DNA from: Deltaproteobacteria bacterium
GTDB lineage: Bacteria > Myxococcota > Myxococcia > SLRQ01
Length of the DNA: 62,814 nucleotides
Assembly (NCBI GenBank): GCA_029210625.1
Contig: JARGFU010000001.1
Location: forward strand, 6,992 to 69,805
Reading direction: 5' to 3'
In this document: one piece after another, positions 2,901-61,361 of the stretch
Position numbering within the stretch: position 1 is the first letter of the stretch
Layout: the number at the start of each line of letters is the position of its first letter
Notes under the pieces: model-generated
The model's database searches: none
The model's input: only the letters and a program-made list of their open reading frames with translations
Told to the model about the DNA's origin: nothing
Position numbers and translations under genes: made by a program

Positions 2901-3236
2901 TCAGGCCGCCGGGGCGAGCTCGACCACGCCGGCGGCGCGGTGCCGCACGAGGGCGATGAAGCCCTCCCAGGTCTCGGGGCGCATGGTCAGGGTGCTGAAC
3001 TCGCGGCCGCTGCTCTTGCCGGCGAAGACGACCTCGCCGCGGATCCACTCGGAGGTGCCGTCGGGGAAGCGCAGGATCCCCACCAGGCGCTGGGCGGGCG
3101 CGAGCTGCAGGTCCCAGATCTTCAGGGTGTCGAGGTCGATCGCCTCGACCTCGCGCTCGAGGGTCTCGCTCTCTCCGGCGAGGGTCAGCGAGATGCGCTC
3201 GGCCTGCTTCTTCCCCGGCTTCGTGATGGCGTCCAT
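2901..3236 (-). CDS. Hypothetical protein (~111 aa, starts MDAITKPGKK)
   Basis: In-frame ATG at 3234-3236 inside the 2901..3332 ORF. Strong GC3 bias throughout. No family recognised. Confidence 0.5.
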   Translation of the reverse strand: MDAITKPGKKQAERISLTLAGESETLEREVEAIDLDTLKIWDLQLAPAQRLVGILRFPDGTSEWIRGEVVFAGKSSGREFSTLTMRPETWEGFIALVRHRAAGVVELAPAA

Positions 3237-9131: not shown

Positions 9132-10355
9132 TCAATAGCGCGAGACGCAGGTGCCCAGGGGGTCCTCGGCGAGCACGCCGGAGGAGAGGCGCACCTCGGC
9201 GCTGGTGGCGCACTCGGCCATCGCCGCGCCGGCGGTGTTGGTGCGCAGATCCCCGTCCGAGACGGTCAGGCTCGAGCCCTCGCGGGCGAGGATGCCGAGG
9301 CCCGCGTTGCGCTGCAGGCTGGCGCCGGCGACGCCGAGGGTGGAGGCGCCCCAGGCCTCGATGCCGTGGGAGCCGTTGTCCTCCAGGGCGAGGCCGTCCG
9401 CGCTGCCCGAGGTGCCGATCATCTGCAGGCCTCCGCCGTGGGCCTGCCGCACCGCCACGTCCTCCAGGGTCACGCCGGCGCCGTGGAAGAAGAGGCCCAT
9501 CCCGAGATCCCCCACCGAGTCGCCGGCTACCGTCTGGATCGTGACCCGCCGCAGGGTGGTCTCGCCCCGGAGCACCTGCACGCCCACGCCGGCGACGTTG
9601 CTGACCCGCAGGTCCTCGATCAGGGCCGGCACCAGCAGGTCGTTGGCCACGACCCCGCCGGCGGGCATCGGCCCCTCGAGGACGACGTTCTTCAGGGTGC
9701 CCGCCCCGCCCACCAGGCCCACCCCGGCCTGGGTCACGTTGCGCACGTCGAGGTCGTCGAGCTCCACCCGTCCGTCGGGGCGGGTGAGCAGCCCGTACTC
9801 GGCCTCGCGCGCCCGAAGCCGCAGGCCCGTGAGCGTACCGCCGGCGACGAAGTAGGCCGCCGAGGAGACCCGCTCGGCCATCGCGTCGGTGACCGTGGCC
9901 TCGCCGGCGATGAGGCGCAGCGCGGCCTCCGCGTCGTGCACGAAGAGCTGGGAGAAGGTGGCGTCGCCGGCCTCGATCCGGAAGGCCGCCCGCCCGCCGC
10001 TCACCTCGACCCGCTCGACGATGAGCGAGCCGAGGGAGACGACCGTGTGCTGCCGGTCGGCCCCCTGCAGCTTCAGGTCGCGCAGGATCACCTGCACCCC
10101 CGCGGGCACGACGAGCACGGGGCCGTCCGCCGGCGCCACCACGGTGGTCAGGGCGACGCCCGCCCCCTGGAAGAGGGTGTCCCCCTCGACGACCAGCGGC
10201 CCCTGCACCGTGCCCGCCGGGAGGTTGGCCTCGACGATCGGAGGGTCCGCGTCGGGCTCCGAGGGCTTGCTCGCGCAGCCCGAGCCGCCTCCGGCGCAGC
10301 TCGCCAGGACGAGGGCCGCCAGCAGGCCGCCGCCGGTCGCTCGCCAGGCGTTCAC
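9132..10355 (-). CDS. Lipoprotein with right-handed parallel beta-helix repeats
   Basis: Lipobox LVLASCAGG. Repetitive V/G-rich beta-helix-type segments throughout the sequence. Confidence 0.65.
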   Translation of the reverse strand: MNAWRATGGGLLAALVLASCAGGGSGCASKPSEPDADPPIVEANLPAGTVQGPLVVEGDTLFQGAGVALTTVVAPADGPVLVVPAGVQVILRDLKLQGADRQHTVVSLGSLIVERVEVSGGRAAFRIEAGDATFSQLFVHDAEAALRLIAGEATVTDAMAERVSSAAYFVAGGTLTGLRLRAREAEYGLLTRPDGRVELDDLDVRNVTQAGVGLVGGAGTLKNVVLEGPMPAGGVVANDLLVPALIEDLRVSNVAGVGVQVLRGETTLRRVTIQTVAGDSVGDLGMGLFFHGAGVTLEDVAVRQAHGGGLQMIGTSGSADGLALEDNGSHGIEAWGASTLGVAGASLQRNAGLGILAREGSSLTVSDGDLRTNTAGAAMAECATSAEVRLSSGVLAEDPLGTCVSRY

Positions 10356-17391: not shown

Positions 17392-17418
17392 GAAGATCGG
17401 GTACATTGTAGGCCACCC

Positions 17419-17907
17419 ATGGCCGACGCCCCCGAGAAGACCCCACCCGGAGACCACGACCCCGAGGCGAGCGAGGCCTCCCCCGAGGCCGAGGAGGGAC
17501 GCTCCCCCTCGGGCGCGGACAAGCGCCAGCACCCCCGGGCCAGGCTCTCGCTGCTGGTGCAGTACCGCTTCGCCAGCTTCGACGAGTTCCTCGGCGAGTA
17601 CGCCTCCGACCTCTCCCTGGGCGGGATGTTCATCCGCACCGACGAGCCGAGGCCCTCGGGCTCGATGATCTACCTGCAGTTCTCGCTCAAGGACGGCAGC
17701 ACCCTCATCGAGGGGCTCGGCCGGGTCTGCCACGTGACCGAGCCCGGCGGGGAGCGGCCGGCCGGGATGGGGATCGAGTTCGTGAACTTCGACGAGGCCT
17801 CGCGAGAGCTCATCGAGGGGATCGTCGAGGGGCACCTCTTGGACGGGGGCGAGCCTGAGATCGGTGACGGGGACGGGGACGGGGACGGGGACGGCGCTGG
17901 CCGCTGA
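17419..17907 (+). CDS. PilZ-domain protein with a C-terminal (GD)n tail
   Basis: PilZ motifs are present (QHPRARLSL as RxxxR; DLSLGGMFIRT as DxSxGG). C-terminus ends GDGDGDGDGDGAGR. Confidence 0.7.
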   Translation: MADAPEKTPPGDHDPEASEASPEAEEGRSPSGADKRQHPRARLSLLVQYRFASFDEFLGEYASDLSLGGMFIRTDEPRPSGSMIYLQFSLKDGSTLIEGLGRVCHVTEPGGERPAGMGIEFVNFDEASRELIEGIVEGHLLDGGEPEIGDGDGDGDGDGAGR

Positions 17908-23319: not shown

Positions 23320-23575
23320 CTGTAGGTAGCGCCCAACCGAATAGAACCGATGGTCGCGTACCCGCTCCTCCCGAGACGAGGAGGGGGACGCCGCCAGGCT
23401 CGATGCTGGGGCCTGGTGAGGGAAGCCGGTCGAACGCCGGCGCGGTCCCGCCACTGTAGCCCTCTGATACCCGCTCCATTCGAGCCACTCGTGTCCTTGC
23501 ACGCGGGGAAGGCGGAGCGGGCGCTTCATCCGGAGGGGAGCCAGGAGACCTGATCCTCGGTCAGCCACGCAGCAC
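23320..23575 (+). ncRNA. Cobalamin (AdoCbl) riboswitch
   Basis: Conserved core GGGAAGCCGGTcgaAcgCCGGCGCGGTCCCGCCACTGTAgcc. B12-box-like GAGCCAGGAGACCTG at 23538..23552. Sits in the leader of a TonB-dependent receptor. Confidence 0.8.
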
Positions 23576-23592
23576 TCTTCGACGGAAAGAGG

Positions 23593-25599
23593 TTGGCTCC
23601 CTTGTCTGTACCCCGCCAACCTGCGCTCCTTCCCGGACGCAGGTCTTTTTGTTCGCCCTCCCGAGCCCGGCCCCACGCCGGCGCGCTCGGCGTCGCGCTC
23701 GCCCTGCTCGGCCTCCTGCCGGCCGGGCTGCGGGCCCAGGAGGACGACGCGCCGGTGGTGGACGAGGTGCCCGAGACCGTGGTGCGCGCCCGCGCGCCGG
23801 GCGAGGCCGAGGCGAAGGCCCCCACCGCGGCGCACTACGCGGTCTCCCTGCGCGAGCGCAGCGAGGTCGACGCCGATCTCGGCGCGGCCCTCGAGGGGCT
23901 GCCGCCGGTGGGGCTGCACCGCTACGGCGGGGGGCTGACCACCTTCTCCCTGCGCGGCAGCGCCTCGCACCAGACCCGGGTCGAGATCGGGGGCGTCCCC
24001 CTCACCCCCCTCGGCGGCGGCTCGGTGGATCTCTCGGGCCTCGACCCCGCCCTCTTCTCCCGGGCCGAGGTGATCGCCGGCCCCCAGGGCGCCGCCTTCG
24101 GCACCGGCGCCCTCGGCGGCGTGCTCTCCCTCTCGCCCTGGCCCGAGGCCCGGGGCGGGCCCCGCACCGAGCTCGAGCTGAAGACCGGCAACCACCACCG
24201 CGCCTCCCTCGCCCTGCGCCAGGCCCTCGGCGAGGGCGGGCGCCTTGCGCTCACCGCCGGGCACGAGGGGGGCGACTTCCTCTTCGAGCGCGATCTCACG
24301 CCCAACCTCCCGGACGATCCCTGGATCACCGAGCGCCGCGTCAACAACGCCCGCCGGGAGGGGAGCGTGCTGCTCACCGCGCGGCGGCGGCTGGCGGGCG
24401 GCAAGGCCCAGCTCATCGCCCTGGGGACGCAGCGCCGGCTCGAGCTGCCCGGGCCGGTGGGCTTCCCCACCCCGGGCGCGGGGGCCGAGAGCCGCCGGGC
24501 GCTCCTGGGCGCCTTCTTCGAGGGGCGCTCGCGGGGCGCGGGGAGCCTGCGGCCGAGGGTGCGGCTCCACGTTCGCCAGGAGCACCTCGAGCTCTGGCCG
24601 GGCTCGACGCCCCTGCCGGGCGCCGCCGCCCCCCAGCGCTCCGAGCTGCGCGAGGGCGGCGCGCTCACCGAGGCCGAGCTGCTCCTCGGCGCGCACCTCC
24701 TCACCCTGGGGGGCGCCCTCGAGGGCAGCCAGCTCGCCGGTGAGCTGCGGGCCGGGCGGGTGGTCGGCGCGCTCCACCTGCGCGATCGCGTCTACCTCCT
24801 CGAGGGCCGCCTCCTCCTCTCGGGCGCGGCGCGGCTGGACCTCCCCGGCGATCAGCCCCTCCAGCCCTCCGCAGCCCTGGGGGTCACCTGGACGCTCCAC
24901 GAGTCCCTCGAGCTCCAGGCCAACCTCGGGCGCAGCGTGCGGCTCCCGACCCTGACCGAGCTGCACCGCGAGGGCCCGCTGACCGCCGCCAACCCCGGGC
25001 TCGTGCCCGAGTCGGCCGTCGCCGGGGACCTGGGCCTGCGGCTCTCGCTCTTCCGCCGGCGAGTGGAGCTCGGGCTCTCGGGCTTCCTCTCCCGCTACGC
25101 CGACCTGATCACCTACGAGCTCTACCCGCCGCTCAAGATGCGCGCGACCAACCTGCGCGCCGCCCTCGTCGCCGGCGTGGAGAGCCGCCTGGTGCTCGCC
25201 CCGGGGGGCGGCTTCTCGGCCGAGCTCTCCCACGCCCTCACCCACTCCCGGGTGCTGGGCGACGATCCCAACGAGCGCGGCAAGCCCCTGCCCTACCGCC
25301 CGGCGCAGAGGGGCCACCTGCGCCTCGCCCTCGAGCGCGGCCCCCTCACCGGCCACCTCGGGGTCGAGGCCCGCAGCCAGCTGCGCCGCAACCGGGCCGG
25401 CACCAAGACCCTCCCGGCGCGGGCGCTCCTCTCGGCCGGCCTGCGCGGCCGCCTGGGTCCCGGCTGCTCCCTCGCCCTCCAGCTCGACAACCTCCTCGAC
25501 GACCGCCGGCAGGAAGACGTCCACGGCTACCCCCTGCCCGGCCGCACCCTCCTCACCTCTCTGCGTTGCGCCTTCGGCGCGAAAGGAAACGATCGATGA
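23593..25599 (+). CDS. TonB-dependent outer-membrane receptor (BtuB-like, riboswitch-controlled)
   Basis: Signal peptide. TonB-box region and plug domain are present (RYGGGLTTFSLRGSASHQTRVEIGGVPL). Long beta-barrel region. No ATG in the leader; start is probably TTG at 23593 or 23602. Confidence 0.8.
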   Translation: MAPLSVPRQPALLPGRRSFCSPSRARPHAGALGVALALLGLLPAGLRAQEDDAPVVDEVPETVVRARAPGEAEAKAPTAAHYAVSLRERSEVDADLGAALEGLPPVGLHRYGGGLTTFSLRGSASHQTRVEIGGVPLTPLGGGSVDLSGLDPALFSRAEVIAGPQGAAFGTGALGGVLSLSPWPEARGGPRTELELKTGNHHRASLALRQALGEGGRLALTAGHEGGDFLFERDLTPNLPDDPWITERRVNNARREGSVLLTARRRLAGGKAQLIALGTQRRLELPGPVGFPTPGAGAESRRALLGAFFEGRSRGAGSLRPRVRLHVRQEHLELWPGSTPLPGAAAPQRSELREGGALTEAELLLGAHLLTLGGALEGSQLAGELRAGRVVGALHLRDRVYLLEGRLLLSGAARLDLPGDQPLQPSAALGVTWTLHESLELQANLGRSVRLPTLTELHREGPLTAANPGLVPESAVAGDLGLRLSLFRRRVELGLSGFLSRYADLITYELYPPLKMRATNLRAALVAGVESRLVLAPGGGFSAELSHALTHSRVLGDDPNERGKPLPYRPAQRGHLRLALERGPLTGHLGVEARSQLRRNRAGTKTLPARALLSAGLRGRLGPGCSLALQLDNLLDDRRQEDVHGYPLPGRTLLTSLRCAFGAKGNDR

Positions 25600-28743: not shown

Positions 28744-29948
28744 CGAAGCGAAACGCCCTCTGGATGGCCCTCTTGCTCCTCGCCCTGGGAGGCCTGGCCG
28801 CCCTCGCGCGCCTCTCCGGCGAGGCGCCGCCCACCCCGGCCGGTGACGACGGGCAGACCCGGACCGACGCCGGCGCCGAGGCCTCACCACAGGCGGTGGT
28901 GGACCCCTCCCGCGAGTCCCTCCAGAGCCTGCGCAACAACCCGCCCCGGCGGATCGACGCCCACACCCACGTGGCGCCCGGCGATCTCGATGCGTTCATG
29001 AAGATCATGGAGGCCGCGGGCATCGACGGGATCGTGAACTTCTCGGGCGGCTTCCCGGGCGGCGGGCTGGAGCAGCAGCTCGAGGCCGCGGCGCGCTACC
29101 CCCACCGGGTCGCGGTGATGATGAACCTCGACTGGCGCAGCTTCGGCCGGCCCGGCTGGGTCGAGGCCCAGGTCGCGGCCCTGGAGCAGGGCAAGGCCCT
29201 GGGCGCCGCCGGCCTGAAGATCAGCAAGGCCCTGGGTCTGGGCGTGCGGCACCCCGACGGCAAGCTGCTCGCGGTCGACGATCCCCTCCTCGATCCGATC
29301 TTCGAGGCCTGCGGCCGGCTGGGCCTCCCGGTGGCGATCCACACCGGAGACCCCCGCGCCTTCTTCGACGCCCCCACCCCCGAGAACGAGCGCTACCTCG
29401 AGCTGCAGAAGAACCCGGGCTGGTCCTTCCACGGCAAGGACTTCCCGGAGTGGCGGGCGCTGCGCGAGGCCTTCCTCGCCCGCATCGGCCGCCACCCGAA
29501 GACCACCTTCATCGGCGTGCACTTCGGCAACTCCCCGGAGGACCCGCGCTGGGTGGCCGACGTGATGGACCAGTTCCCCAACCTCTACATCGACACCGCC
29601 GCCCGCCTGCCCGAGGTGCTGCGGCAGGAGGACCCCGTGCGCTGGCGCGAGACCCGGCGGGTCTTCGATCGCCACACCGAGCGGGTGCTCTTCGGCAGCG
29701 ACTCGATGCAGATGGGGGGCGAGCTGATCCTGGGCGCGCCCGGCGCCCGCAAGATGCACCGCACCGACGCCGCGGTCTTCTTCCGCACCCACTGGCGCCT
29801 CTTCCAGACCTCCGACTTCGACGTCCCCTCGCCCTCCCCGATCCAGGGCAAGTGGCCCCTGCGAAGCCTGGGGCTGAAGCGCAACCACCTCGAGCCCTTC
29901 TACCATGGCACCGCCGAGCGCCTCTTCCCCCAGCTCGCCACCCCCTGA
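28740..29948 (+). CDS. Exported metal-dependent amidohydrolase (Amidohydro_2-like TIM barrel) inserted inside the B12-transport operon
   Basis: N-terminal signal or anchor (LWMALLLLALGGLAALA). Metal ligands IDAHTHV, VAIHTGDP, GVHFGNS, LFGSDS. Confidence 0.75.
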   Translation: MTKRNALWMALLLLALGGLAALARLSGEAPPTPAGDDGQTRTDAGAEASPQAVVDPSRESLQSLRNNPPRRIDAHTHVAPGDLDAFMKIMEAAGIDGIVNFSGGFPGGGLEQQLEAAARYPHRVAVMMNLDWRSFGRPGWVEAQVAALEQGKALGAAGLKISKALGLGVRHPDGKLLAVDDPLLDPIFEACGRLGLPVAIHTGDPRAFFDAPTPENERYLELQKNPGWSFHGKDFPEWRALREAFLARIGRHPKTTFIGVHFGNSPEDPRWVADVMDQFPNLYIDTAARLPEVLRQEDPVRWRETRRVFDRHTERVLFGSDSMQMGGELILGAPGARKMHRTDAAVFFRTHWRLFQTSDFDVPSPSPIQGKWPLRSLGLKRNHLEPFYHGTAERLFPQLATP

Positions 29949-30777
29949 GCTGGCGCGGATCGAGGGGCTCGCCTTCGCCTACCCCGGCGGGCGCACCCTC
30001 TTCGCGGACCTCACGCTCGAGGTCCGGGGCGGCGAGCTCCTCGGCGTCCTCGGCCCCAACGGCGCGGGCAAGAGCACCCTCCTCTCGCTCCTCTGTGGCC
30101 TGGCGCGGCCGGCGGCCGGCCGCCTCTTCCTCGGCGGGGATCCCCTCGAGGGGCTCTCGCGCCGGGAGCTGGCTCGCCGGATCGCCCTGGTCCCCCAGGA
30201 CGTGGGCGCGGCCTTCCCCTTCACCGTCCTCCAGACGGTCCTCCTCGGGCGCACCCCCCACCTCGGTCCCCTGGGCATCGAGCGAGCCGAGGACCTCGAG
30301 CGGGCCGAGGCGGTCCTCGAGGAGACCGGCCTCTCGGCGCTGCGCGACCGCCCCATCGACGCCCTCTCGGGGGGCGAGCGGCAGCGGGTGCTGATCGCGC
30401 GGGCGCTCTGCCAGGACACCCCCCTGCTCGCCTGCGACGAGCCCACCTCGCACCTGGACATCCACCACCAGGTGAAGACCTACGACCTCTTCCATCGCCT
30501 GACCCGCGATCCGGCGCGGGGCGCCCTCTGCGTCCTGCACGACCTCAACCTCGCGGCGGCCTACTGCGACCGCATCCTCCTCCTCGACGCCGAGGGGAGG
30601 CAGGCCGCCCTCGGCCCCACCGAGGAGGTGCTCTCCTACGCCCTGCTCAAGGAGGTCTACCGCACCGAGATCTGGGTGGGCGTGAACGAGCTCACCGGCG
30701 CCCTGACCCTGGCCCCGGTCGCCGGGCATGATCGGGCGCCGCCGCCGGTTGGAGGTGGCCGGGTGGGGGATCGATGA
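29905..30777 (+). CDS. ABC transporter ATP-binding protein (BtuD/FecE class)
   Basis: Walker A GPNGAGKST. ABC signature LSGGERQRV. Walker B LLACDEPTSHLD. Confidence 0.85.
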   Translation: MAPPSASSPSSPPPELARIEGLAFAYPGGRTLFADLTLEVRGGELLGVLGPNGAGKSTLLSLLCGLARPAAGRLFLGGDPLEGLSRRELARRIALVPQDVGAAFPFTVLQTVLLGRTPHLGPLGIERAEDLERAEAVLEETGLSALRDRPIDALSGGERQRVLIARALCQDTPLLACDEPTSHLDIHHQVKTYDLFHRLTRDPARGALCVLHDLNLAAAYCDRILLLDAEGRQAALGPTEEVLSYALLKEVYRTEIWVGVNELTGALTLAPVAGHDRAPPPVGGGRVGDR

Positions 30778-40522: not shown

Positions 40523-42586
40523 TCAGCCCCGCCGGCGGCGGGTGCGCAGGGCCAGCAGGCCACCGATCAGCGCGAGGCCGAGGAGGCCGGGCCGGCCCTC
40601 GCCGGTGCTGCCGCAGTCGCAGCCCTCGCCCTCCTCGGGCGGCTCGGCGCCGCAGTCGCTGTCATGCTCCTCGCAGCCCGCGGGGCAGCAGCCGTCGTCC
40701 GGGACGCAGGCGGTGATGGCGCTGCGCGTGCAGAGCAGATCGCAGCTCGCGGCCGAGCCGAAGGCCGCGTCGGCGGTGCAGGCGTCGCCGTCGTCACAGG
40801 ACGCCGGGCAGTCCCCGTCGCAGGTCTCGCCGCCCTCGACGATCCCGTTGCCGCAGGTCTGCGCCGCGCAGTCGCTGTCGTTGGCTGAGGTGCACCCCGG
40901 CGCGCAGCAGCCGTCCCCCGAGGTGCAGGCGCCGATGGCGTCGTTCCGGCAGGCGAGATCGCAGGTCTCGGAGGAGCCGGTCATGGCGTCGGTGGTGCAG
41001 ACGTCGCCGTCGTCGCAGGTCGCCGGGCAGTCCCCGTCGCAGGTCTCGCCGGCCTCGACCACCCCGTTGCCGCAGGTGGCGGGCGAGGCGCAGTCCGAGT
41101 CGCCCGCTGCCGCGCAGCCGCCGGGGCAGCAGCCGTCGCCTCCGATGCAGGCGCTGATCCGGGCGTTGACGCAGACCAGGTCACAGGTGGAGAACTCACC
41201 GGTCTGGCTGTCGATGGTGCAGGCGTCCGCGTCGTCGCAGGTCGTGGGGCAGTTCCCGTCGCAGATCTCGCTCCCCTCGACGACCCCGTTGCCGCAGACC
41301 GGCGCGCTGCCGCAGTCGTCGTCGTTCTGCCAGGTGCAGCCGGGCGCACAGCAGCCGTCGCCGTTGGTGCACGCCGTGATCGAGGCGTGGGTGCAGGCCA
41401 TGTCACAGGTGGAGGGATCGCCCGCCTGCTGGTCGGTGGTGCAGGCGTCGCCGTCGTCGCAGGTCGAAGGGCAGATGGCGAGCGGATCGCAGGTCTCCCC
41501 GGCCGCGGTGTTCAGGGTGCCGTCGTCGCAGGCCACGAAGGTGCAGTCGGCGTCACAGGTGGCGGTCTGGCCGCCCTCGTCGCAGTCCTCGCCGGCGTCG
41601 ACGAAGCCGTTGCCGCAGCCCCCACTGGCGCAGTCGGAGTCGTTGCCCGGGTTGCAGCCCGGGGCGCAGCAGCCGTCGCCGCCGGTGCAGGTCGTGATCG
41701 GGGCGTTGGTGCAGGCCAGGTCACAGGTGGCCGCGCTGCCGGTCTGGCTGTCGCTGGTGCAGACGTTGCCGTCGTCGCAGGTGCCCGGGCAGCTCGAGAT
41801 GGGATCGCAGGTCTCCCCGGCCGTGGTGTTCAGGGTGCCGTCGTCGCAGACCACGGCGGTGCAGTCGGCGTCGCAGGTGGCCGACTCGCCCCCGTCGTCG
41901 CAGGCCTCCGTCCCCTCGACGCTGCCGTTGCCGCAGACCGCCGTGGAGCAGTCCGGATCGGCGCCGTCGTAGACGTCGTCCCCGTCGTTGTCGAGGCCCT
42001 CGGTGAGGCCAGCGAAGTCCTCGCTCCCGTCGAGGTTGCAGGGATCGGTGGGGATCGAGGGGTGACCGGTGCCGGGGCTGGCGTAGTAGGGCGGTGAGAT
42101 CTCCTCCCCCACGGGGGTGTAGTTGACCGGGTTGGCGTCCTGGTGGCAGCTGGCGCAGACGGTGGTCCCCTTGCGGTAGTGGTGCTGACGCAGCCCGGCT
42201 CCGCGGCCCCCGTAGGAGGGGAAGTCCGGGTTGGAGGAGGTGTTGTCCTCCTCCCGCCCGTGGCAGCCCACGCAGGCGATGGCCAGCAGCCCCGCGCCGC
42301 CGTTCGAGCTGTTCAGCAGCACCGGGAAGCGACTCGGCCCGTGGCAGGTGTCGCAGTCACCACCGAGCATGTCCGCGCGGTGGATCACATGATTGTTGCC
42401 CCAGCTCTGCCCGTCGGTGCTGGAGGTGTAGCTGTTGGAGCGGAAGTCACCATGGCAGGCACGGCAGTTGGTGGCGTCCTTGTTCTGGCTGTACCGGTCG
42501 TAGGCGCGCGCCTCACCGGGCCCGAACGATAGGAACAAGGCGATCGCGATCAGGGCAGAGACCTTCCAGAGCGACTTCGCGTTCAT
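40523..42586 (-). CDS. Secreted tetra-heme c-type cytochrome domain fused to Myxococcus cysteine-rich repeats, with a MYXO-CTERM tail
   Basis: Signal peptide. Four CxxCH motifs (CRACH, CDTCH, CVGCH, CASCH) in the first ~180 aa. About 6 repeats of the CGNGxVExGExCD...CDDGDxCTxD...GDGCCAPGC type. Terminal [33 protein letters not shown]. Confidence 0.8.
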
Positions 42587-42646
42587 GGTTCCCCTCCTCC
42601 AGGGAGTCTAGATCATCCAGCACCTGCTCTCGTAGAGTCCCCGGCG

Positions 42647-44383
<1,737 letters not shown>

Positions 44384-44884: not shown

Positions 44885-45535
44885 CTAGGGGCAGTTCACG
44901 TCGTTGTAGGTGTTGAAGGGCTCGCCGCCGGGGGCGGACGCCTCCTCCCCGATCCGGCCGGTGGGGCAGGTGCCGCCGGTCGTGCCGTCCTCGGTGGAGA
45001 TGAACCAGGTGTCCACGTTCGAGTCGTCGTCGAGGTTCCCCGCGGCCACGGCGGTGAAGCCGCAGACGGGGCAGAGCCCCTCGTCCTGGACGCCCGGCAG
45101 GGTCGTCATGGTCCCCACCGGCGACTGCCAGGTCACCGAGGGCATGCTGCCCCAGCCGGGGTTCGGGTTGGCCGTGGCGAACTTGAAGGTGTCCACCGAG
45201 ACGTACTCGGCGTTGCTGGCCGCGACCTCGGAGCCCACGGGATCGGTGCGATCGACCGAGTTCGCGGCGGTCCCCGAGTAGAAGGCGAAGCGGTTCGGCC
45301 GCTCGGGGCTGAAGCCCACGATCAGGATCTTGGAGGTGTACTCGTCGAACTCGGTGTAATAGGCCTTCTCGGCCGAGAAGAGCGCCTTGAGGTTGCTCTT
45401 GGCCTCGGACTGTCGGGCCTTGGCCTGGAACCGAACGAAGTTCGGGATCGCGATGGCGGCGAGGAGGCCGATGATGGCCACCACGATCATGAGCTCGATG
45501 AGGGTGAATCCACTCCCCGGGAACTTCCGACCCAT
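44885..45535 (-). CDS. pilA: Type IVa major pilin PilA
   Basis: Prepilin leader ending G|[24 protein letters not shown]. Strongly similar to M. xanthus PilA across its whole length, including the C-terminal Cys pairs. ATG at 45535; the GTG at 45547 is the alternative start. Confidence 0.85.
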
Positions 45536-45607
45536 CTTCCCTTGCACTTCCCCAGGCTAACGGATGAGGCCGAGGATTCGCAACTTAGGCAGGTTCTGGC
45601 TTGCGCG

Positions 45608-47491: not shown

Positions 47492-47570
47492 GCCCTCCTT
47501 TCGGCGGTCTTGTCCGCCCCGAGGTCGCCCGTGAATCCTTTTGTTTCAGCCGAGGCACCCAAGAGAAGCG

Positions 47571-48476
47571 ATGCCCGGTAGACACGTACTCCTCGTCGAC
47601 GACTCGGCCAGTGTGCGGGCCGTGCTCCGTCTGGAGCTCGAGACCCTGGGCTTCTTCGTCACCGAGGCCATCGAGGTGGAGGCGGCCCGGGAGGCCCTGG
47701 CCGCCAACGACGACATCGACGCGGTCCTCCTCGACTGGCACCTGCCGGGGACCAGCGGCATCGACCTCCTGCGGGAGTGGATGGCCCACCCCCGCTACCG
47801 TTGGATCCCGGTGCTGATGATCACCTCCGACGAGGACCCGGCCCGGATCCGGGAGGCCCTCTCCGCCGGCGCCGTCGACTTCCTCCACAAGCCGCCGGAC
47901 ACCCTCGAGCTCCACGCCCGCCTCTCCTCGGCCCTGCGGATCAAGGCGCTCCACGACGAGCTGCGGACCCTGGCGATGCACGACTCGCTCACCGGGCTGC
48001 TGAACCGCCGGGCGCTCGACTACCGGCTCGAGGACGAGATCTCCCGGGCGATCCGCTACGAGCGCGACCTCTCGGTGGCCCTGATCGACGTCGACCACTT
48101 CAAGCAGGTCAACGACACCCACTCTCACTCGGTCGGCGACCGCGCCCTCGTCCACGTGGGCTCCCTGCTCACTCAGGGCCTGCGGCGGGCCGACACCGTC
48201 GCCCGCTGGGGTGGCGAGGAGTTCATCGTCGTCCTCCCCGAGACCGGCCTGGAGGACGCCGTCCACGCCGTCGACCGTATGCGCCAGGCCCTGGTCGAGG
48301 CGCCCTGCATCTGTGGGGGCAAGGAGCTGCCCCTCACCTGGAGCGCCGGCGTCGCCTCGCTCTCCAGCCTCGAGGACAAGCACCCCTCCACCCTCGTCGA
48401 CGCCGCCGATCAGGCCCTCTACCGGGCCAAGGCCGCCGGGCGGAACCAGGTCGTGGGCGGCCGCGCCGAGGACTGA
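47571..48476 (+). CDS. Response-regulator diguanylate cyclase (REC plus GGDEF with intact GGEEF)
   Basis: VLLVDDSASVR. Asp in LLDWHLPG. RWGGEEF active site. RxxD I-site region. Confidence 0.85.
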   Translation: MPGRHVLLVDDSASVRAVLRLELETLGFFVTEAIEVEAAREALAANDDIDAVLLDWHLPGTSGIDLLREWMAHPRYRWIPVLMITSDEDPARIREALSAGAVDFLHKPPDTLELHARLSSALRIKALHDELRTLAMHDSLTGLLNRRALDYRLEDEISRAIRYERDLSVALIDVDHFKQVNDTHSHSVGDRALVHVGSLLTQGLRRADTVARWGGEEFIVVLPETGLEDAVHAVDRMRQALVEAPCICGGKELPLTWSAGVASLSSLEDKHPSTLVDAADQALYRAKAAGRNQVVGGRAED

Positions 48477-53855: not shown

Positions 53856-54149
53856 CTAGGGGGAGGGGCGCGGCCCGCCGGGGATCACCCGGGTCTGCTC
53901 GCCGTCCTCGCTGATCTCGAGCTGACCCCGCTCGACCATCCGGTAGAAGACGGCGCGGACCACCGCCTGCCACCCACCCCCCAGGTAGGCGATCGCCTCG
54001 GCGCTCAGCCCCTCGGCCGGGGGCAGCGGCAGGTCCTCGGTGCCGTCCCACCAGTGGAGGATCCGGTTGATCCCCAGCGCGAGGGCCACCAGGCCCAGGT
54101 AGACGAGGAGGAAGGTCGGTCCCGGTATCGAACGAATGAGCTCCAGCAT
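53856..54149 (-). CDS. N-terminal part (1 TM) of the same reading frame, ending at an in-frame TAG (53856-53858)
   Basis: ATG at 54147-54149 with AAAGGAGAG 6 nt upstream. MLELIRSIPGPTFLLVYLGLVALALGINRIL. Same frame as the 53277..53771 segment. Confidence 0.5.
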   Translation of the reverse strand: MLELIRSIPGPTFLLVYLGLVALALGINRILHWWDGTEDLPLPPAEGLSAEAIAYLGGGWQAVVRAVFYRMVERGQLEISEDGEQTRVIPGGPRPSP

Positions 54150-54211
54150 CGTGGTCTCTCCTTTCGAAGAGACCTGCGCGAGCTCTCCCGGAAATCCGTA
54201 GGAAGAAGCGG

Positions 54212-54238
54212 TTGACAACTTGGCCATGTTGCCACATG
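54212..54238. promoter_or_regulatory. Operator/promoter TTGACAACTTGGCCATGTTGCCACATG in the divergent region (candidate ArsR/SmtB site)
   Basis: Imperfect palindrome CAACTTGGCCATGTTG embedded between -35-like TTGACA and -10-like hexamers. A near-identical copy lies at 54592..54618. Confidence 0.55.
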
Positions 54239-54265
54239 AATCGTGCGTCTCACTCCGGAGAAGCC

Positions 54266-54562
54266 ATGCCCTGTTCCGACGACAAGGTCTTCAAGCAGCA
54301 AGCGCGGGTGCTCAAGGCCCTCGCCAACGCCTCGCGCCTGAAGATCGTCGACCGGCTCTCCCGGGGGGAGTGCTCGGTCGGAGAGCTCACCGAGCTGGTC
54401 GGCTCGGACCGCTCCACCGTCTCCAAGCACCTCGCGGTGCTGCGCAGTCACGGGATCGTCGAGGACCGCCGGGAGGGCAACGTCGTCTACTACTCGCTCC
54501 TGACGCCCTGCGTGATGAACTTCTTCTCCTGTGCCACCCAGGTCCTCGAGGAGCGCAGCTGA
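54266..54562 (+). CDS. ArsR/SmtB-family metalloregulator
   Basis: HTH region LKALANASRLKIVDRL...ECSVGELTELVGSDRSTVSKHL. Carries Cys residues N-terminally (MPCSDD) and C-terminally (CVMNFFSC). Confidence 0.85.
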   Translation: MPCSDDKVFKQQARVLKALANASRLKIVDRLSRGECSVGELTELVGSDRSTVSKHLAVLRSHGIVEDRREGNVVYYSLLTPCVMNFFSCATQVLEERS

Positions 54563-54591
54563 TGGTCCCCGCGGTTTTTTTTGAGCCAATA

Positions 54592-54618
54592 TTGCCAACT
54601 TGGCCATATTGCCATGCA
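54592..54618. promoter_or_regulatory. Second operator copy TTGCCAACTTGGCCATATTGCCATGCA, upstream of the permease gene
   Basis: 20/23 positions match the 54212 site, with the same TTGNCA...TTGCCA framing. Confidence 0.55.
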
Positions 54619-55811
54619 CTTCCGGCGAGGGCCTCCCGGTGAAGGAGCGAAGCAAGCTGCTGCTCATGCTGGCGGTCTTCGCCGCCTGCTGGTTCCTGCC
54701 GGTGGACAGCGAGCGCTTCCTGTCGGCGGTCGGCGAGGGCCTGAAGCTCACCCGGTGGTACGCCCGGGAGCACGTGCTGCTCTGCCTGGTGCCGGCCTTC
54801 TTCATCGCCGGCGCCATCAGCGTCTTCGTCAGCCAGGGCTCGGTGATGAGGTACCTCGGCCCGGCCGCGAGGAAGCTCGTCGCCTACCCGGTGGCCGCGG
54901 TCTCCGGCACCATCCTGGCGGTCTGCTCCTGCACGGTGCTGCCCCTCTTCGCGAGCATCCACCAGCGCGGCGCCGGCCTCGGCCCGGCCACCGCCTTCCT
55001 CTACTCCGGGCCGGCCATCAACGTGCTGGCGATCATCCTCACGGCGCGAGTGCTGGGCCTCGAGCTGGGCATCGCCCGCGCGGTCGGGGCGATCACCTTC
55101 TCGGTGATCATCGGCCTGCTCATGCACCTCTTCTTCCGCAAGGAGGAGGCCGCCCGTCAGGCCGAGGGCATGGTCCTGATGCCGGTCGAGGAGCGGGGCC
55201 GGACGCTCTGGCAGGAGGGCGTCTACTTCGCCGCCCTGGTCGGCATCCTGGTCTTCGCCAACTGGGGCGCTCCGGCCGAGAAGGACACGGGCGTCTGGAC
55301 CAGCGTCCACTCGGTGAAGTGGATCGTCACCGGCGGGTTCGCCCTCGTCCTCGTCTTCTCCCTCTGGCGTTGGTTCGAGCGGGACGAGCTTGGCGACTGG
55401 ACCGAGTCGAGCTGGACCTTCGCCAAGCAGATCATGCCGCTGCTCCTGGCTGGCGTGCTCGTCGCGGGCTTCCTGCTCGGTGGCCCCGATGGCGGCCGCG
55501 GCGTGATCCCCGACGAGTGGGTCGCCTCGATGGTGGGCGGCAACTCGCTGGGCGCCAACCTCTTCGCTTCGGTGGCGGGCGCCCTGATGTACTTCGCCAC
55601 CCTCACCGAGGTGCCCATCCTGGAGGGGCTCCGCAGCTCGGGCATGGGGAAGGGACCCGCGCTGGCGCTGCTGCTCGCGGGTCCGGCGCTCTCCCTGCCC
55701 AACATGCTCGTCATCCGAAGCGTGATGGGCACCCGGAAGACCCTGGTGTTCATCGGGCTGGTGATCGTGCTCTCAACCCTCGCAGGTCTGCTCTACGGAG
55801 CGCTGTTCTAG
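54600..55811 (+). CDS. COG0701/DUF318-type permease (the two-CPxC-motif permease commonly found in ArsR-linked clusters)
   Basis: 8-10 TM helices. AVCSCTVLPLF motif. Start uncertain: TTG 54600, GTG 54639 or ATG 54666. Confidence 0.8.
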   Translation: MAILPCTSGEGLPVKERSKLLLMLAVFAACWFLPVDSERFLSAVGEGLKLTRWYAREHVLLCLVPAFFIAGAISVFVSQGSVMRYLGPAARKLVAYPVAAVSGTILAVCSCTVLPLFASIHQRGAGLGPATAFLYSGPAINVLAIILTARVLGLELGIARAVGAITFSVIIGLLMHLFFRKEEAARQAEGMVLMPVEERGRTLWQEGVYFAALVGILVFANWGAPAEKDTGVWTSVHSVKWIVTGGFALVLVFSLWRWFERDELGDWTESSWTFAKQIMPLLLAGVLVAGFLLGGPDGGRGVIPDEWVASMVGGNSLGANLFASVAGALMYFATLTEVPILEGLRSSGMGKGPALALLLAGPALSLPNMLVIRSVMGTRKTLVFIGLVIVLSTLAGLLYGALF

Positions 55812-55820
55812 GAGGTCGTG

Positions 55821-56069
55821 ATGAAGGTCGAGATCCTGGGAACCGGATGTGCCAAGTGCCAGAAGCTCTACCGGCTGGTGGAGCAGGCCGTCGCCGACAC
55901 CGGCTCGGACGCCGAGGTGGTGAAGGTCGAGAAGATGGACGAGATCATGAGCTACGGCGTGCCCTTCACGCCGGCCCTGGTCATCGACGGTACCGTGAAG
56001 TCGGTGGGCAACCTCCCGAAGCCCGCCCAGCTCGAGGCCTGGCTCCGGGAAGGCGCGGGCCAGCGCTGA
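55821..56069 (+). CDS. Thioredoxin-fold redox-active disulfide protein 2-like small protein (CxxC)
   Basis: ATG with GGAGG 6 nt upstream. MKVEILGTGCAKCQKL. Confidence 0.85.
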   Translation: MKVEILGTGCAKCQKLYRLVEQAVADTGSDAEVVKVEKMDEIMSYGVPFTPALVIDGTVKSVGNLPKPAQLEAWLREGAGQR

Positions 56070-56076
56070 AGCGCCG

Positions 56077-56784
56077 ATGCTTGACGAGCTGGTTCAGAAC
56101 GCGGGTCAGTACATCGACACGAACCCGTGGCTCGCCATCGCGGCGGTCTTCGTCGGCGGCCTGCTGACGGCCTCGAACCCCTGCGTCCTCGCCATGATCC
56201 CGCTGACGATGAGCTTCGTGGCCGGCCGGCGGGAGGAGAGGCCCGGGGTGCTCCGCGCGCTCGGCTTCTCCTCCGTCTTCGTCCTGGGGCTCTCCCTCAC
56301 CTTCACCGCGCTGGGCATGGTCGCCGCGCTCGCCGGCCAGCTCTACGGCGACGTCTCCAGCGCCTGGAACTGGGTGGTCGCCGCCGTCTGCGGGGTGATG
56401 GGGCTCCACCTGATGGGCGTGGTGACCGTGCCCATCCCCTCGCTGGCCGGCCGGATCCAGCCGAGGACCCGCGGCCTGCTCGGCGCGCTGATCCTCGGCC
56501 TGCTCTTCGGGCTGGTCTCCGCGCCCTGCGCGGCGCCGATCCTCGTCGTCCTGCTCACCTACCTGGCCGGCTCGGGCGCCTCGGTGGCGTACGGCGGCCT
56601 GCTGCTGCTCGTCTACGCCCTCGGCCACAGTCTGCTGATCCTCATCGCCGGCACCTCCATGGGCGCCGCGCGCACCCTCATCGAGAACAAGAAGATGACC
56701 GGGACCCTGGCCATCCTGCGCAAGGGCGCGGGCGTCGTGATCGTCCTGGTCGGGCTCTACTTCGGCTATCGAGGTCTGTCATGA
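56077..56784 (+). CDS. CcdA/DsbD-family transmembrane thiol-disulfide electron transporter
   Basis: Two conserved TM Cys residues (TASNPCVLAMIP and VSAPCAAPIL). 6 TM helices. Confidence 0.85.
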   Translation: MLDELVQNAGQYIDTNPWLAIAAVFVGGLLTASNPCVLAMIPLTMSFVAGRREERPGVLRALGFSSVFVLGLSLTFTALGMVAALAGQLYGDVSSAWNWVVAAVCGVMGLHLMGVVTVPIPSLAGRIQPRTRGLLGALILGLLFGLVSAPCAAPILVVLLTYLAGSGASVAYGGLLLLVYALGHSLLILIAGTSMGAARTLIENKKMTGTLAILRKGAGVVIVLVGLYFGYRGLS

Positions 56785-57432: not shown

Positions 57433-57436
57433 CCTG

Positions 57437-57509
57437 TGAGGGCGGAAGGAATCGAACCTTCAACCTATGGATTAAGAGTCCATTGCTCTGCCAATTGAGC
57501 TACGCCCCC
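57437..57509 (-). tRNA. tRNA-Lys (anticodon CTT)
   Basis: Manually folded cloverleaf. Anticodon loop CTCTTAA. T-loop GGTTCGATTCC. No encoded CCA. Confidence 0.85.
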
Positions 57510-57528
57510 GTATGGGGATGATCTGGAG

Positions 57529-57602
57529 GGTGACCAGAGGGGATTGAACCCTCAACCTCCGGAGCCACAGTCCGGCGCTCTGCCAATTGAGCTATGGTCA
57601 CC
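57529..57602 (-). tRNA. tRNA-His (anticodon GTG) with encoded G-1
   Basis: Loop CTGTGGC. Extra 5' G pairs with the discriminator C, as is typical of tRNA-His. Confidence 0.85.
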
Positions 57603-57635
57603 ATAGCTTCGTATTCGTCTTTTTGGTGGCGCCAG

Positions 57636-57709
57636 TACGCCAGGAGGGACTCGAACCCCCGACCAGCGGCTTAGAAGGCCGCTGCTCTATCCACCTGAGC
57701 TACTGGCGC
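57636..57709 (-). tRNA. tRNA-Arg (anticodon TCT)
   Basis: Loop CTTCTAA. Cloverleaf folds with one G-U pair in the acceptor stem. Confidence 0.85.
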
Positions 57710-57728
57710 ATCCTATTCGTTTTTCTTG

Positions 57729-57802
<74 letters not shown>

Positions 57803-60237: not shown

Positions 60238-61281
60238 TTAACCCAGCACCCGGACCCGGGGCTTGCCCTCGACGATCCGCCCGATCTCGGCGGCCACCGG
60301 GGTCTTCGCCTCTTCAAGGGCGAGGAGCAGCTTGTCCGCCACCCGGGGGGAGGCCGAGATGAGCAGGCCGCCGGAGGTCTGGGCGTCGGCCAGGAGGATC
60401 CGCTCGAGCTCGGGCAGCTTGCCGAAGCGCACCTTCGGGGCGACGGCCTCGAGGTTGGCCTTCGAGCCTCCGGGGATCTCGCCGCCCTCGGCGTGCCTTC
60501 GGGCGGCGGAGAGGATCGGGATCCTGGCGTGCTCGAGCTCGGCGCCCACGCCGGAGGCCTCGAGCATCTCCAGGAGGTGGCCGAGGAGGCCGAAGCCGGT
60601 GACGTCGGTCAGCGCCCGCACGCCACGCGGGAAGCGCCGCACGACCTCGCTCGCGCCGCGGTTGAGGGTGCGCATCACCCGGCTGACCTCGCGGATCTCC
60701 TTGGGGCTCGCCCGCCCGGCCTTGATGGCGGTGGCGAGGATGCCGCTGCCCAGGGGCTTGGTGAGGATCAGGCGGTCGCCCGGCCGCGCGCCGGCGTTGG
60801 TGAGCAGCCGCTTCGGGTGCACCTTCCCCACCACCGCCAGGCCGTACTTCGGCTCGCGGTCGTCGATGGAGTGGCCGCCCATCAGCGGCACCCCGGCCTC
60901 CTTCGCCACCGACGAGCCGCCCGCCAGGATGCGGCTGGCGATCTTCAGGTCGAGGGTGCGGGGGAAGGCCAGGAGGTTGAGCGCCATGATCGGATCGGCG
61001 CCCATGGCGTAGACGTCCGAGAGCGCGTTGGCCGCGGCGATCGCGCCGAACTGGAAGGCATCGTCGACGATCGGGGTGAAGAAGTCGGTGGTGAAGACCA
61101 GCGCGGTGCGAGGATCGAGCAGGTACACCCCGGCGTCATCCCGCGTGTCGGTCCCCACCAGGACGCGCGGGTCGGTGATCGGCGGCAGTGAGCGCAGCAC
61201 CTGCGCCAGCTCCTTCGGGCGGAGCTTGCAGGCTCAACCAGCGCCGTGGCTGTACTGCGTGAGTCTCTCGTTGGAGGGCAT
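60238..61281 (-). CDS. selD: Selenide, water dikinase (selenophosphate synthetase) encoded as a selenoprotein: in-frame TGA (Sec) at 61234..61236
   Basis: Translating through the UGA gives MPSNERLTQYSHGAG-U-ACKLRPKELAQVLRSLPP, the canonical SelD N-terminus. Hairpin agctcc-gcccgaa-ggagct lies 9 nt downstream of the UGA. Body motifs TTDFFTPIVDDAFQFGAIAAANALSDVYAMG. The track ORF 60238..61200 is the UGA-truncated version. Confidence 0.85.
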
Positions 61282-61361
61282 GGACACAGTCATACTCCCG
61301 AATCGCTCCGGGCGCAGGTGGTCAGCGCCGGGCGATGCCGCCTATCCTCTTGCGAGGCCTC

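Follow-up and report, generated by a model that had tools for sequence, protein, structure and literature searches.

A gene for selenophosphate synthetase, SelD, whose reading frame is traversed by a UGA codon, lies on the minus strand of the 62.8-kb window analysed here, by which we refer to the whole stretch of 62,814 nucleotides from contig JARGFU010000001.1 of an uncultured deltaproteobacterial metagenome-assembled genome (MAG). The coding region and its immediate surroundings comprise the following features:

60238..61281, minus strand: full selD coding sequence, 347 codons including selenocysteine (Sec), plus the stop codon TAA at 60240..60238
61279..61281, minus strand: probable start codon ATG; the homologous ATG starts the gene of the closest relative, L081
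61234..61236, minus strand: in-frame UGA, Sec residue 16, which aligns with Cys17 of the Escherichia coli protein and is kept in relatives
61225..61227, minus strand: codon of the active-site Lys in the motif U-A-C-K, the equivalent of E. coli Lys20 in the alignment with PDB entry 3u0o
61282..61361: intergenic stretch, about 80 bp long, that separates selD (minus) from a divergent Ser/Thr protein kinase gene (plus)

On the minus strand, the frame runs from ATG 61281..61279 through 15 codons (MPSNERLTQYSHGAG) to the TGA at 61236..61234, beyond which 331 uninterrupted codons (ACKLRPKELAQVLRSLPP...) reach the TAA at 60240..60238, the part downstream of the UGA being intact with a G+C content at third codon positions (GC3) of 0.96. 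The identity of the product is reflected in its match to the NCBIfam model TIGR00476 (selD), which covers residues 4-343 with 388.7 bits at a cutoff of 125, in a score of 382.2 bits for NF002098 at a cutoff of 299 and in the alignment of residues 4-325 with E. coli SelD (PDB 3u0o, 3.4e-81). In this alignment, the UGA falls on the catalytic Cys17 and the subsequent A-C-K on the G-C-K that contains Lys20, and the N-terminal glycine-rich loop SHGAG-U-ACK pairs with SHGAGCGCK, with both the Sec/Cys residue and the Lys in place. The active-site Lys is invariant in the sets of Sec-type and cysteine (Cys)-type genes described below, where in the Sec set the K belonged to the search pattern. One relative (L089, about 9974-9985) carries U-A-S-K in place of U-A-C-K, with Ser at the position of E. 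coli Cys19, and retains the UGA and both of the hairpins that follow it.

The assignment of ATG 61281..61279 as probable start codon agrees with the selD of L081, which begins at the homologous ATG (MPSRDRL...) and offers no in-frame start upstream. An alternative in-frame ATG at 61293..61291 is without counterpart in relatives. Direct inspection of the sequence identified GGGAG at 61299..61295 as a weak and distant Shine-Dalgarno candidate, and a scan of the selD region found neither a sigma-70-like promoter nor a terminator. The mechanically generated list of open reading frames (ORFs) contains only a 320-residue ORF from GTG 61200, the longest conventional ORF at this place. This GTG is a Val codon located in the loop of the second hairpin downstream of the UGA, and a protein begun there would lose the Sec/Cys residue and the Lys of the catalytic loop. 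The divergent kinase gene (plus strand, from about 61362) was identified by Pfam PF00069.

Conservation of the in-frame UGA

The closest proteins to the window SelD in a collection of 5.8 billion proteins are between 75% and about 60% identical to it, and nearly all of them comprise 306-327 residues at a query coverage of 88-92%, an N-terminal truncation typical of gene prediction that begins past an in-frame stop. On the contigs of the 8 nearest lineages (L081-L092), TGA occupies the homologous codon throughout, with SHGAG preceding it and a start codon located 11-20 codons upstream. The same arrangement was recovered in a scan of metagenomes with the pattern CAYGGNGCNGGNTGAGCNTGYAAR (H-G-A-G-TGA-A-C-K), which yielded at least 120 matches. 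A selD reading frame follows the TGA in 120 of the 120 matches listed, and among these, the region upstream shows R at position -10 in 111, L at -9 in 120, T at -8 in 113 and S at -5 in 106 cases, all of them positions that lay outside the search pattern. This conservation at the level of the protein implies that the region preceding the UGA is translated in frame with the region following it.

A scan of reference genomes using SelD with U replaced by C returned 80 Cys-type loci. The query peptide HGAGCACK drew Cys-type loci only, and this collection is thus uninformative on the frequency of Sec and serves as contrast set only. The aligned codon in 77 of these loci is either TGC (67) or TGT (10).

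Within the window, TGA ends 24 of the 49 stop-terminated coding-like segments. A screen for coding segments of the same frame that are joined by TGA, which is blind to selenoproteins with short N-terminal parts, returned two other candidates on the minus strand, both of which were rejected as Sec codons: the TGA at 2901..2903 is a plain boundary between a small protein and a CarboxypepD_reg repeat protein, and the one at 9132..9134 a plain boundary between a beta-helix protein and a DUF3336/patatin phospholipase. Given that TGA serves as a normal stop here and that both other junctions are gene boundaries, a reassigned code is excluded.

Structured RNA downstream of the UGA

The messenger RNA following the UGA can form two adjacent hairpins, termed HP1 and HP2, or an alternative fold that excludes the second of them:

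61208..61226 (+8..+26 after the UGA), minus strand: HP1, AGCUCC / GCCCGAA / GGAGCU, 6 bp, -9.1 kcal/mol, the hairpin described in an earlier note on this DNA
61191..61207 (+27..+43 after the UGA), minus strand: HP2, GGCGCAG / GUG / CUGCGCU, 7 bp, -9.6 kcal/mol
61199..61233, minus strand: alternative long-stem fold pairing GCCUGC (61233..61228) with GCAGGU (61204..61199) around HP1 and excluding HP2

The arms of HP1 (61226..61221 and 61213..61208) enclose a loop at 61220..61214 that is 13 nt away from the UGA, and this hairpin is seen in the minimum-free-energy (MFE) fold. HP2 directly adjoins HP1 and places its loop at a distance of 33 nt. Both hairpins are perfect helices and do not contain the bulged U that, in the upper stem of the E. 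coli fdhF-type SECIS, is a determinant for SelB (PMC8704476). In the window, the long-stem fold and the tandem of HP1 and HP2 are isoenergetic (-20.2 vs -20.3 kcal/mol).

The properties expected of a bacterial selenocysteine insertion sequence (bSECIS) are an upper stem of 4-16 bp that is capped by an apical loop of 3-9 nt (PMC13188914, Fig. 2 legend), a G within the first two nucleotides of this loop, usually as N1-G-[G/U]-N-N2, a spacing of 16-37 nt from the UGA to the loop and an MFE of -7.5 kcal/mol or below (PMC13188914). The conserved determinants for the interaction with SelB are a G and a U of the loop that are unpaired and adjacent to each other (PMC8704476). We have coded the four bSECIS rules directly and applied them to the window and to the Sec and Cys sets. 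HP2 is the sole hairpin of the window that passes all four. Its GUG loop is closed by G33-C37 to give G33-G34-U35-G36-C37, an exact instance of N1-G-U-N-N2, and it carries the adjacent G34-U35; with this closing pair left open, HP2 reads GGCGCA-GGUGC-UGCGCU. HP1 complies with respect to its loop (7 nt), stem (6 bp), first-position G and energy but fails in its spacing (13 nt vs 16-37), a failure that is marginal and dependent on convention, as counting the UGA itself gives 16. The HP1 loop contains no adjacent G-U, and in most relatives it consists of a Pro codon CCN without any G, which makes HP2 the more likely element to bind SelB.

The same rules separate the two classes of genes, with a passing hairpin in 93 of 121 Sec-type genes compared to 6 of 79 Cys-type genes, and in 77 of these 93 the best passing hairpin is found at a spacing of 32-33, the position of HP2. 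In lineages lacking HP2 (of the ACKIGPGDLAKAL... types), the sole candidate is a hairpin at the position of HP1 with a GG-rich loop and a spacing of 16-17, and the position of the SECIS thus appears to differ within the selD family. Judged by these sequence features, HP2 is somewhat favoured as the SelB-binding element of the window gene, and HP1, conserved and associated with Sec, would have the role of an accessory helix.

The stem agctcc/ggagct with its loop gcccgaa that the earlier note had described is thus present, although it begins at the 8th nucleotide following the UGA, after a 7-nt spacer, and not 9 nt after it as stated there. As to the proposal that this hairpin lies where bacterial SECIS elements sit, HP1 is real and enriched in Sec-type genes, yet it does not agree with the spacing of 16-37 nt, into which the adjoining HP2 fits instead. 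The bSECIS-type structure prediction that had been recommended for this region identifies HP2 (61207..61191), inside the interval considered at the time, as the passing hairpin.

Comparison of Sec-type and Cys-type genes

On average, the 48 nt after the Sec codon are by 3.5 kcal/mol more stable in 122 distinct Sec-type sequences than the corresponding stretch in 79 Cys-type sequences, a gap that amounts to 4.8 kcal/mol upon adjustment for G+C content (Mann-Whitney p = 5e-8), with mean values of -8.0 vs -4.6 kcal/mol in the region of HP1 (p = 5e-9) and -7.7 vs -3.7 kcal/mol in the region of HP2 (p = 7e-7), p-values that overstate independence, since the sequences are related by descent and both sets originate from different collections and clades. 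In the control region +1..+20, the two sets are alike in stability. A fold of -5 kcal/mol or better in the HP1 region is found in 80% of Sec-type and 41% of Cys-type genes.

In an ungapped alignment of 111 distinct Sec-type sequences, the tandem structure shows 77.9% paired cells and a covariation of 0.209, which compares to 0.128 +/- 0.007 in column shuffles, none of 500 reaching the observed value, and to at most 0.096 when the partners are slid by 1-3 columns. Within HP2, position +30, at which the Ala codon ends, varies with position +40, the first base of the 14th codon after Sec, the two forming G-C in 51, C-G in 10 and U-A in 8 cases and being unpaired in 9, and the compensation is illustrated in the codon pairs GCG...CGC (Arg), GCU...AGC (Ser), GCC...GGC (Gly) and ACG (Thr)...CGU. 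With the peptide fixed at AQVLR, all 6 inner pairs of HP2 are kept in 46 of 49 Sec-type genes compared to 1 of 7 Cys-type genes (Fisher p = 1.7e-5). The Sec-type genes encode this peptide with GCG for Ala in 47 of 49, CUG or UUG for Leu in 48 of 49 and CGC or CGU for Arg in 49 of 49 cases, and the Cys-type genes without full pairing use GCC, CUC or CGG. The preservation of the pairs under an identical peptide reflects selection on RNA structure at synonymous sites. These data show a SECIS evolving under coding constraints, where synonymous sites covary with neighbouring codons. The inner pairs of HP1 covary as well (GC/CG/AU; AUC...GAU vs CUC...GAG), and its outer four pairs are largely dictated by the conserved K-L...E-L codons and similarly pairable in Cys-type genes. 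The presence of the consensus hairpin, in 77% of the Sec-type selD genes compared to 8% of the Cys-type ones, provides a simple discriminator within the family.

Among the alternatives to HP2 as SelB-binding element, the one that survives best would assign this role to HP1 (61226..61208) itself and regard HP2 as incidental. HP1 is stable and the first nucleotide of its loop is a G, it is enriched in Sec-type genes, its inner pairs covary and, in the lineages devoid of HP2, the hairpin at its position is the sole SECIS candidate. Against these properties stand its spacing outside the consensus, the missing G-U in its loop, which is CCN in most relatives, and the constraint of its outer pairs by codons that confer the same pairing to Cys-type genes. 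Moreover, the 5' arm of HP1 begins with the 8th nucleotide past the UGA and would thus lie within the stretch that is covered by the ribosomal mRNA channel while the UGA occupies the A site. On balance, we consider it unlikely that HP1 is the SECIS of the window gene.

In a second alternative, the SECIS would consist of one long interrupted stem pairing +1..+6 with +30..+35 around HP1 and leaving HP2 unformed, which would resemble the 40-nt SECIS of fdhF, whose lower helix includes the UGA region. This stem is equal in energy to the tandem and constitutes the MFE structure both of the window and of some of the relatives, and 84.7% of the cells in its lower helix are paired. However, its columns are nearly invariant and its pairing is thus uninformative, and where variation occurs, at the pair 6/30, C-C and C-U mismatches are found without compensation. 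Its covariation of 0.116 compares to 0.088 in shuffles, in contrast to the 0.209 vs 0.128 of the tandem, and the variation at +30 follows +40, its partner in HP2, and not +6. The long stem is for these reasons an improbable candidate, still less plausible than HP1.

Proposed mechanism and its assessment

In the mechanism that we propose, translation would start at ATG 61281, and upon arrival at the UGA at 61236..61234, SelB in complex with GTP and Sec-tRNA(Sec) would insert Sec into the glycine-rich N-terminal loop. This recoding would be directed by the structured mRNA immediately 3' of the UGA with its two adjacent hairpins, of which the distal HP2, with its 7-bp stem and a G-U apical loop located 33 nt past the UGA, would serve as SelB-binding SECIS, and the proximal HP1 as an accessory helix that would be at least partly unwound with the UGA in the A site. 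As a more speculative extension, which we regard as possible though doubtful, most selD genes of the HGAG-U-ACK type, the window gene among them, might carry a bipartite signal, in which a proximal hairpin of the HP1 type resides next to, and is possibly stacked on, a distal SECIS, with the position of the SECIS switching within the family. The proximal helix would in this case be a structured spacer or an element for pausing or positioning and not the site of SelB, and the G-U loop of HP2, at its distance of 33 nt, may be supplied by the invariant Val codon. A bipartite recoding signal of this kind may not have been explicitly described before.

Several observations weigh against the proposed mechanism. 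The Sec machinery could be looked for in the 62.8-kb window only, and selA, selB and selC are absent there. The 66-nt fold of the window on its own is no better than shuffled sequences (z = -0.62, with 47 of 200 folding as well), which is unremarkable in light of a G+C content of 72%, and significance thus rests on the comparison with other genes only. Searches with the Rfam SECIS families, the bacterial models of which were built on other selenoprotein genes, found no match at gathering thresholds, nor at E <= 10 on a region of 151 nt. Different from the SECIS of E. coli fdhF, HP2 does not contain a bulged U, and its loop is 33 nt away from the UGA compared to 18 nt in fdhF, thus 15 nt further. 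The G-U of the HP2 loop is part of a Val codon whose conservation extends to Cys-type genes, and the Sec-specific feature of HP2 is hence the stem around the G-U and not the loop itself. Across the relatives, two registers of HP1 are seen, and HP2 is missing from about a third of the lineages. RNAalifold returned no consensus structure for all 111 Sec-type sequences, and we therefore claim no single universal structure; the tandem fold was obtained with 15 Sec-type sequences, a subset that was picked by hand. The relatedness of the sequences that affects the p-values adds to these points.

Despite these reservations, the gene at 60238..61281 (minus) probably encodes a Sec-containing selenophosphate synthetase SelD, a reading to which we assign a probability of roughly 0.85. 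The claim of the earlier note that selD is a selenoprotein gene is thus supported by the location of the UGA on Cys17, the presence of TGA in all close relatives, the conservation of the coding sequence upstream and the Sec-specific structure downstream. The note had also placed Sec at the conserved Sec/Cys position, in agreement with the alignment to the E. coli protein, and had recognised that the annotated ORF, the listed 320-residue frame from GTG 61200, starts too late, the frame running from ATG 61281. We consider it very unlikely that the UGA results from a sequencing error, that the gene is a pseudogene or that translation begins downstream. A single MAG sequence could by itself harbour an error that has turned TGC or TGT into TGA, the circumstance that the note had named as refuting its claim, and one metagenome relative appears frameshifted. 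However, the same TGA is found in the 8 independent nearest lineages and in all 120 matches listed, the 331 downstream codons are intact with their high GC3, and the consensus hairpin is specific for Sec-type genes. Decoding of the UGA without Sec machinery, by a reassigned code or near-cognate read-through, or a start at GTG 61200 leading to an N-truncated SelD, are equally remote: this GTG does open the longest conventional ORF, yet about half of the coding-like segments of the window terminate with TGA and the two other in-frame TGA junctions are gene boundaries, the truncated product would be devoid of the catalytic Sec/Cys and Lys, the upstream RLTxxSHGAG is conserved, and the GTG itself is a conserved Val codon inside the loop of HP2.

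The frameshifted relative (L208, minus, from index 790) shows a break of the frame 15 codons past the UGA (ACKIGQGTWQKLFPD*), and is either a frameshifted pseudogene or the product of an assembly error.

Selenocysteine machinery and gene neighbourhood

The genes selA, selB and selC had been stated to lie outside the window, which is in line with our searches. The tRNA scan found tRNAs for Lys, His, Arg and Pro only, there was no match to the Rfam model of tRNA-Sec in the 62.8 kb, and neither SelA nor SelB was detected in the window by tblastn with the E. coli proteins or by Pfam on 46 coding-like segments. A tRNA scan of 120 Sec-type loci (L081-L203 minus three duplicates, leaving out L204-L212) identified a tRNA-SeC near selD in L171 only, where it is located at 7351-7446 (plus), has the anticodon tca and resides about 1 kb from the Sec-type selD in divergent orientation. 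NCBIfam models detected no SelA or SelB in the neighbouring ORFs of L171. Matches to E. coli SelA and SelB by tblastn were confined to three Cys-type actinobacterial loci (L045, L055 and L072; Pseudonocardia-like), in which selA adjoins selD, as does selB in L072. Machinery genes are thus almost never found beside Sec-type selD loci, and with L171 as the only one of 120 to contain a nearby tRNA-SeC, their absence from the window is unremarkable. A neighbour of selD in L171 encodes a heavy-metal P-type ATPase with an N-terminal domain that weakly matches the model 'UxxU metal-binding (seleno)protein'.

The arrangement of the divergent kinase gene, selD and RNase PH that is found in the window is shared by L082-L084. 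Next to RNase PH and selD, the window contains a group of tRNA genes:

57436-57802, minus strand: tRNA cluster Pro(tgg)-Arg(tct)-His(gtg)-Lys(ctt)

The same Pro-Arg-His-Lys cluster is located beside the Sec-type selD in L085 and L086, and an expanded form of it in L095 and L139. In L081, selD is directly preceded upstream by a PilZ-kinase gene and a small gene with a rhodanese domain (4358-4768, minus), a domain known from proteins of selenium and sulfur transfer. No counterpart of the L081 rhodanese gene was flagged in the window.

Relation to known selenoproteins

SelD is described as the second most widespread family of selenoproteins in prokaryotes, in which Sec takes the catalytic position within the N-terminal loop (PMC13188914). 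A survey of 2006 has counted 38 Sec-containing SelDs (PMC1794560) and lists SelD as selenoprotein of Anaeromyxobacter dehalogenans, Geobacter and Desulfovibrio (PMC1794560, Table 2), and Sec-decoding organisms without FdhA all carry a Sec-containing SelD (PMC1794560). The window SelD shares with the proteins of these organisms and of Aquifex aeolicus (PDB 2yye/2zod) the TIGR00476 family, the position of Sec and the logic by which an enzyme that itself depends on Sec provides the selenium donor for the synthesis of Sec. There is no fundamental difference, the window gene being a copy from an uncultured high-GC MAG, with a product whose best match in the protein collection is 75% identical. As Sec-containing SelD has long been known, including that of Anaeromyxobacter, the window gene is a further ordinary example, which leaves the current understanding of selenoprotein biology unchanged. 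Its relatedness to Myxococcota fits the known Sec-rich Deltaproteobacteria.

The E. coli SelD has the motif SHGAG-[C/U]-x-CK and the remaining active site in common with the window protein, whereas its catalytic residue is a Cys encoded by UGC, which requires no SECIS, in place of the UGA. The closest resemblance of HP2 to a known SECIS concerns the upper stem-loop of E. coli fdhF, GGUUGCA-GGUC-UGCACC, a sequence that was confirmed in 5419 of 5426 E. coli genomes. The likeness extends to the core GCA-GGUN-(C)UGC, the adjacent G-U, the small apical loop, the G+C-rich stem of 6-7 bp and the location within the coding region. The gap that precedes HP2 is filled by the separate hairpin HP1, in contrast to the continuous lower helix of fdhF. 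In the bSECIS model of Zhang and Gladyshev (via PMC13188914), all four constraints of which are fitted by HP2, and from which HP1 departs in its spacing, no second conserved hairpin between UGA and SECIS is described.

The practical value of the finding lies in annotation, since the conventional ORF from GTG 61200 loses the catalytic loop. The RadA protein of the MAG is present in the NCBI proteins at 100% identity, whereas its SelD is absent from the protein collection (best match 75% identity), and the selD gene was thus probably mis-called, dropped or marked as a pseudogene on account of its internal UGA. With a Sec-containing SelD, as predicted from its sequence, this uncultured Myxococcota-like bacterium would possess the trait of Sec decoding, and additional selenoproteins are to be expected in other parts of its genome.

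Other features of the window

Besides selD, the window contains the following features:

16030-17388, plus strand: RadA gene; the next named relatives, with 62-64% identity, belong to Myxococcales and Myxococcaceae
17392-17907, plus strand: gene for a PilZ-domain protein
23419-23551, plus strand: cobalamin riboswitch (Rfam RF00174, 69.9 bits), directly upstream of the TonB-dependent receptor gene
23554-25599, plus strand: TonB-dependent receptor (Plug and beta-barrel, Pfam)
29878-30777, plus strand: ABC-transporter ATPase gene, further downstream of the riboswitch
42533-44383, plus strand: formate-tetrahydrofolate ligase (PF01268, 874 bits), then a gene for a small cNMP-binding protein
44885-45556, minus strand: type IV pilin PilA
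47535-48476, plus strand: response-regulator/GGDEF diguanylate cyclase
54140-56784, plus strand: cluster of an ArsR-family regulator, an ArsP_1-type permease, a small Thioredoxin_3 protein and a DsbD-like membrane protein

The gene for the thioredoxin-like protein (55812..56069) was considered as a Sec gene and rejected, as its motif CAKC defines it as a Cys form, and no formate dehydrogenase was found in the window. The riboswitch, the receptor and the ATPase look like a typical locus for the uptake of vitamin B12. The genes for PilA, the PilZ-domain protein and the GGDEF protein, together with the many Ser/Thr kinases encoded in relatives, fit a Myxococcota-like lifestyle.

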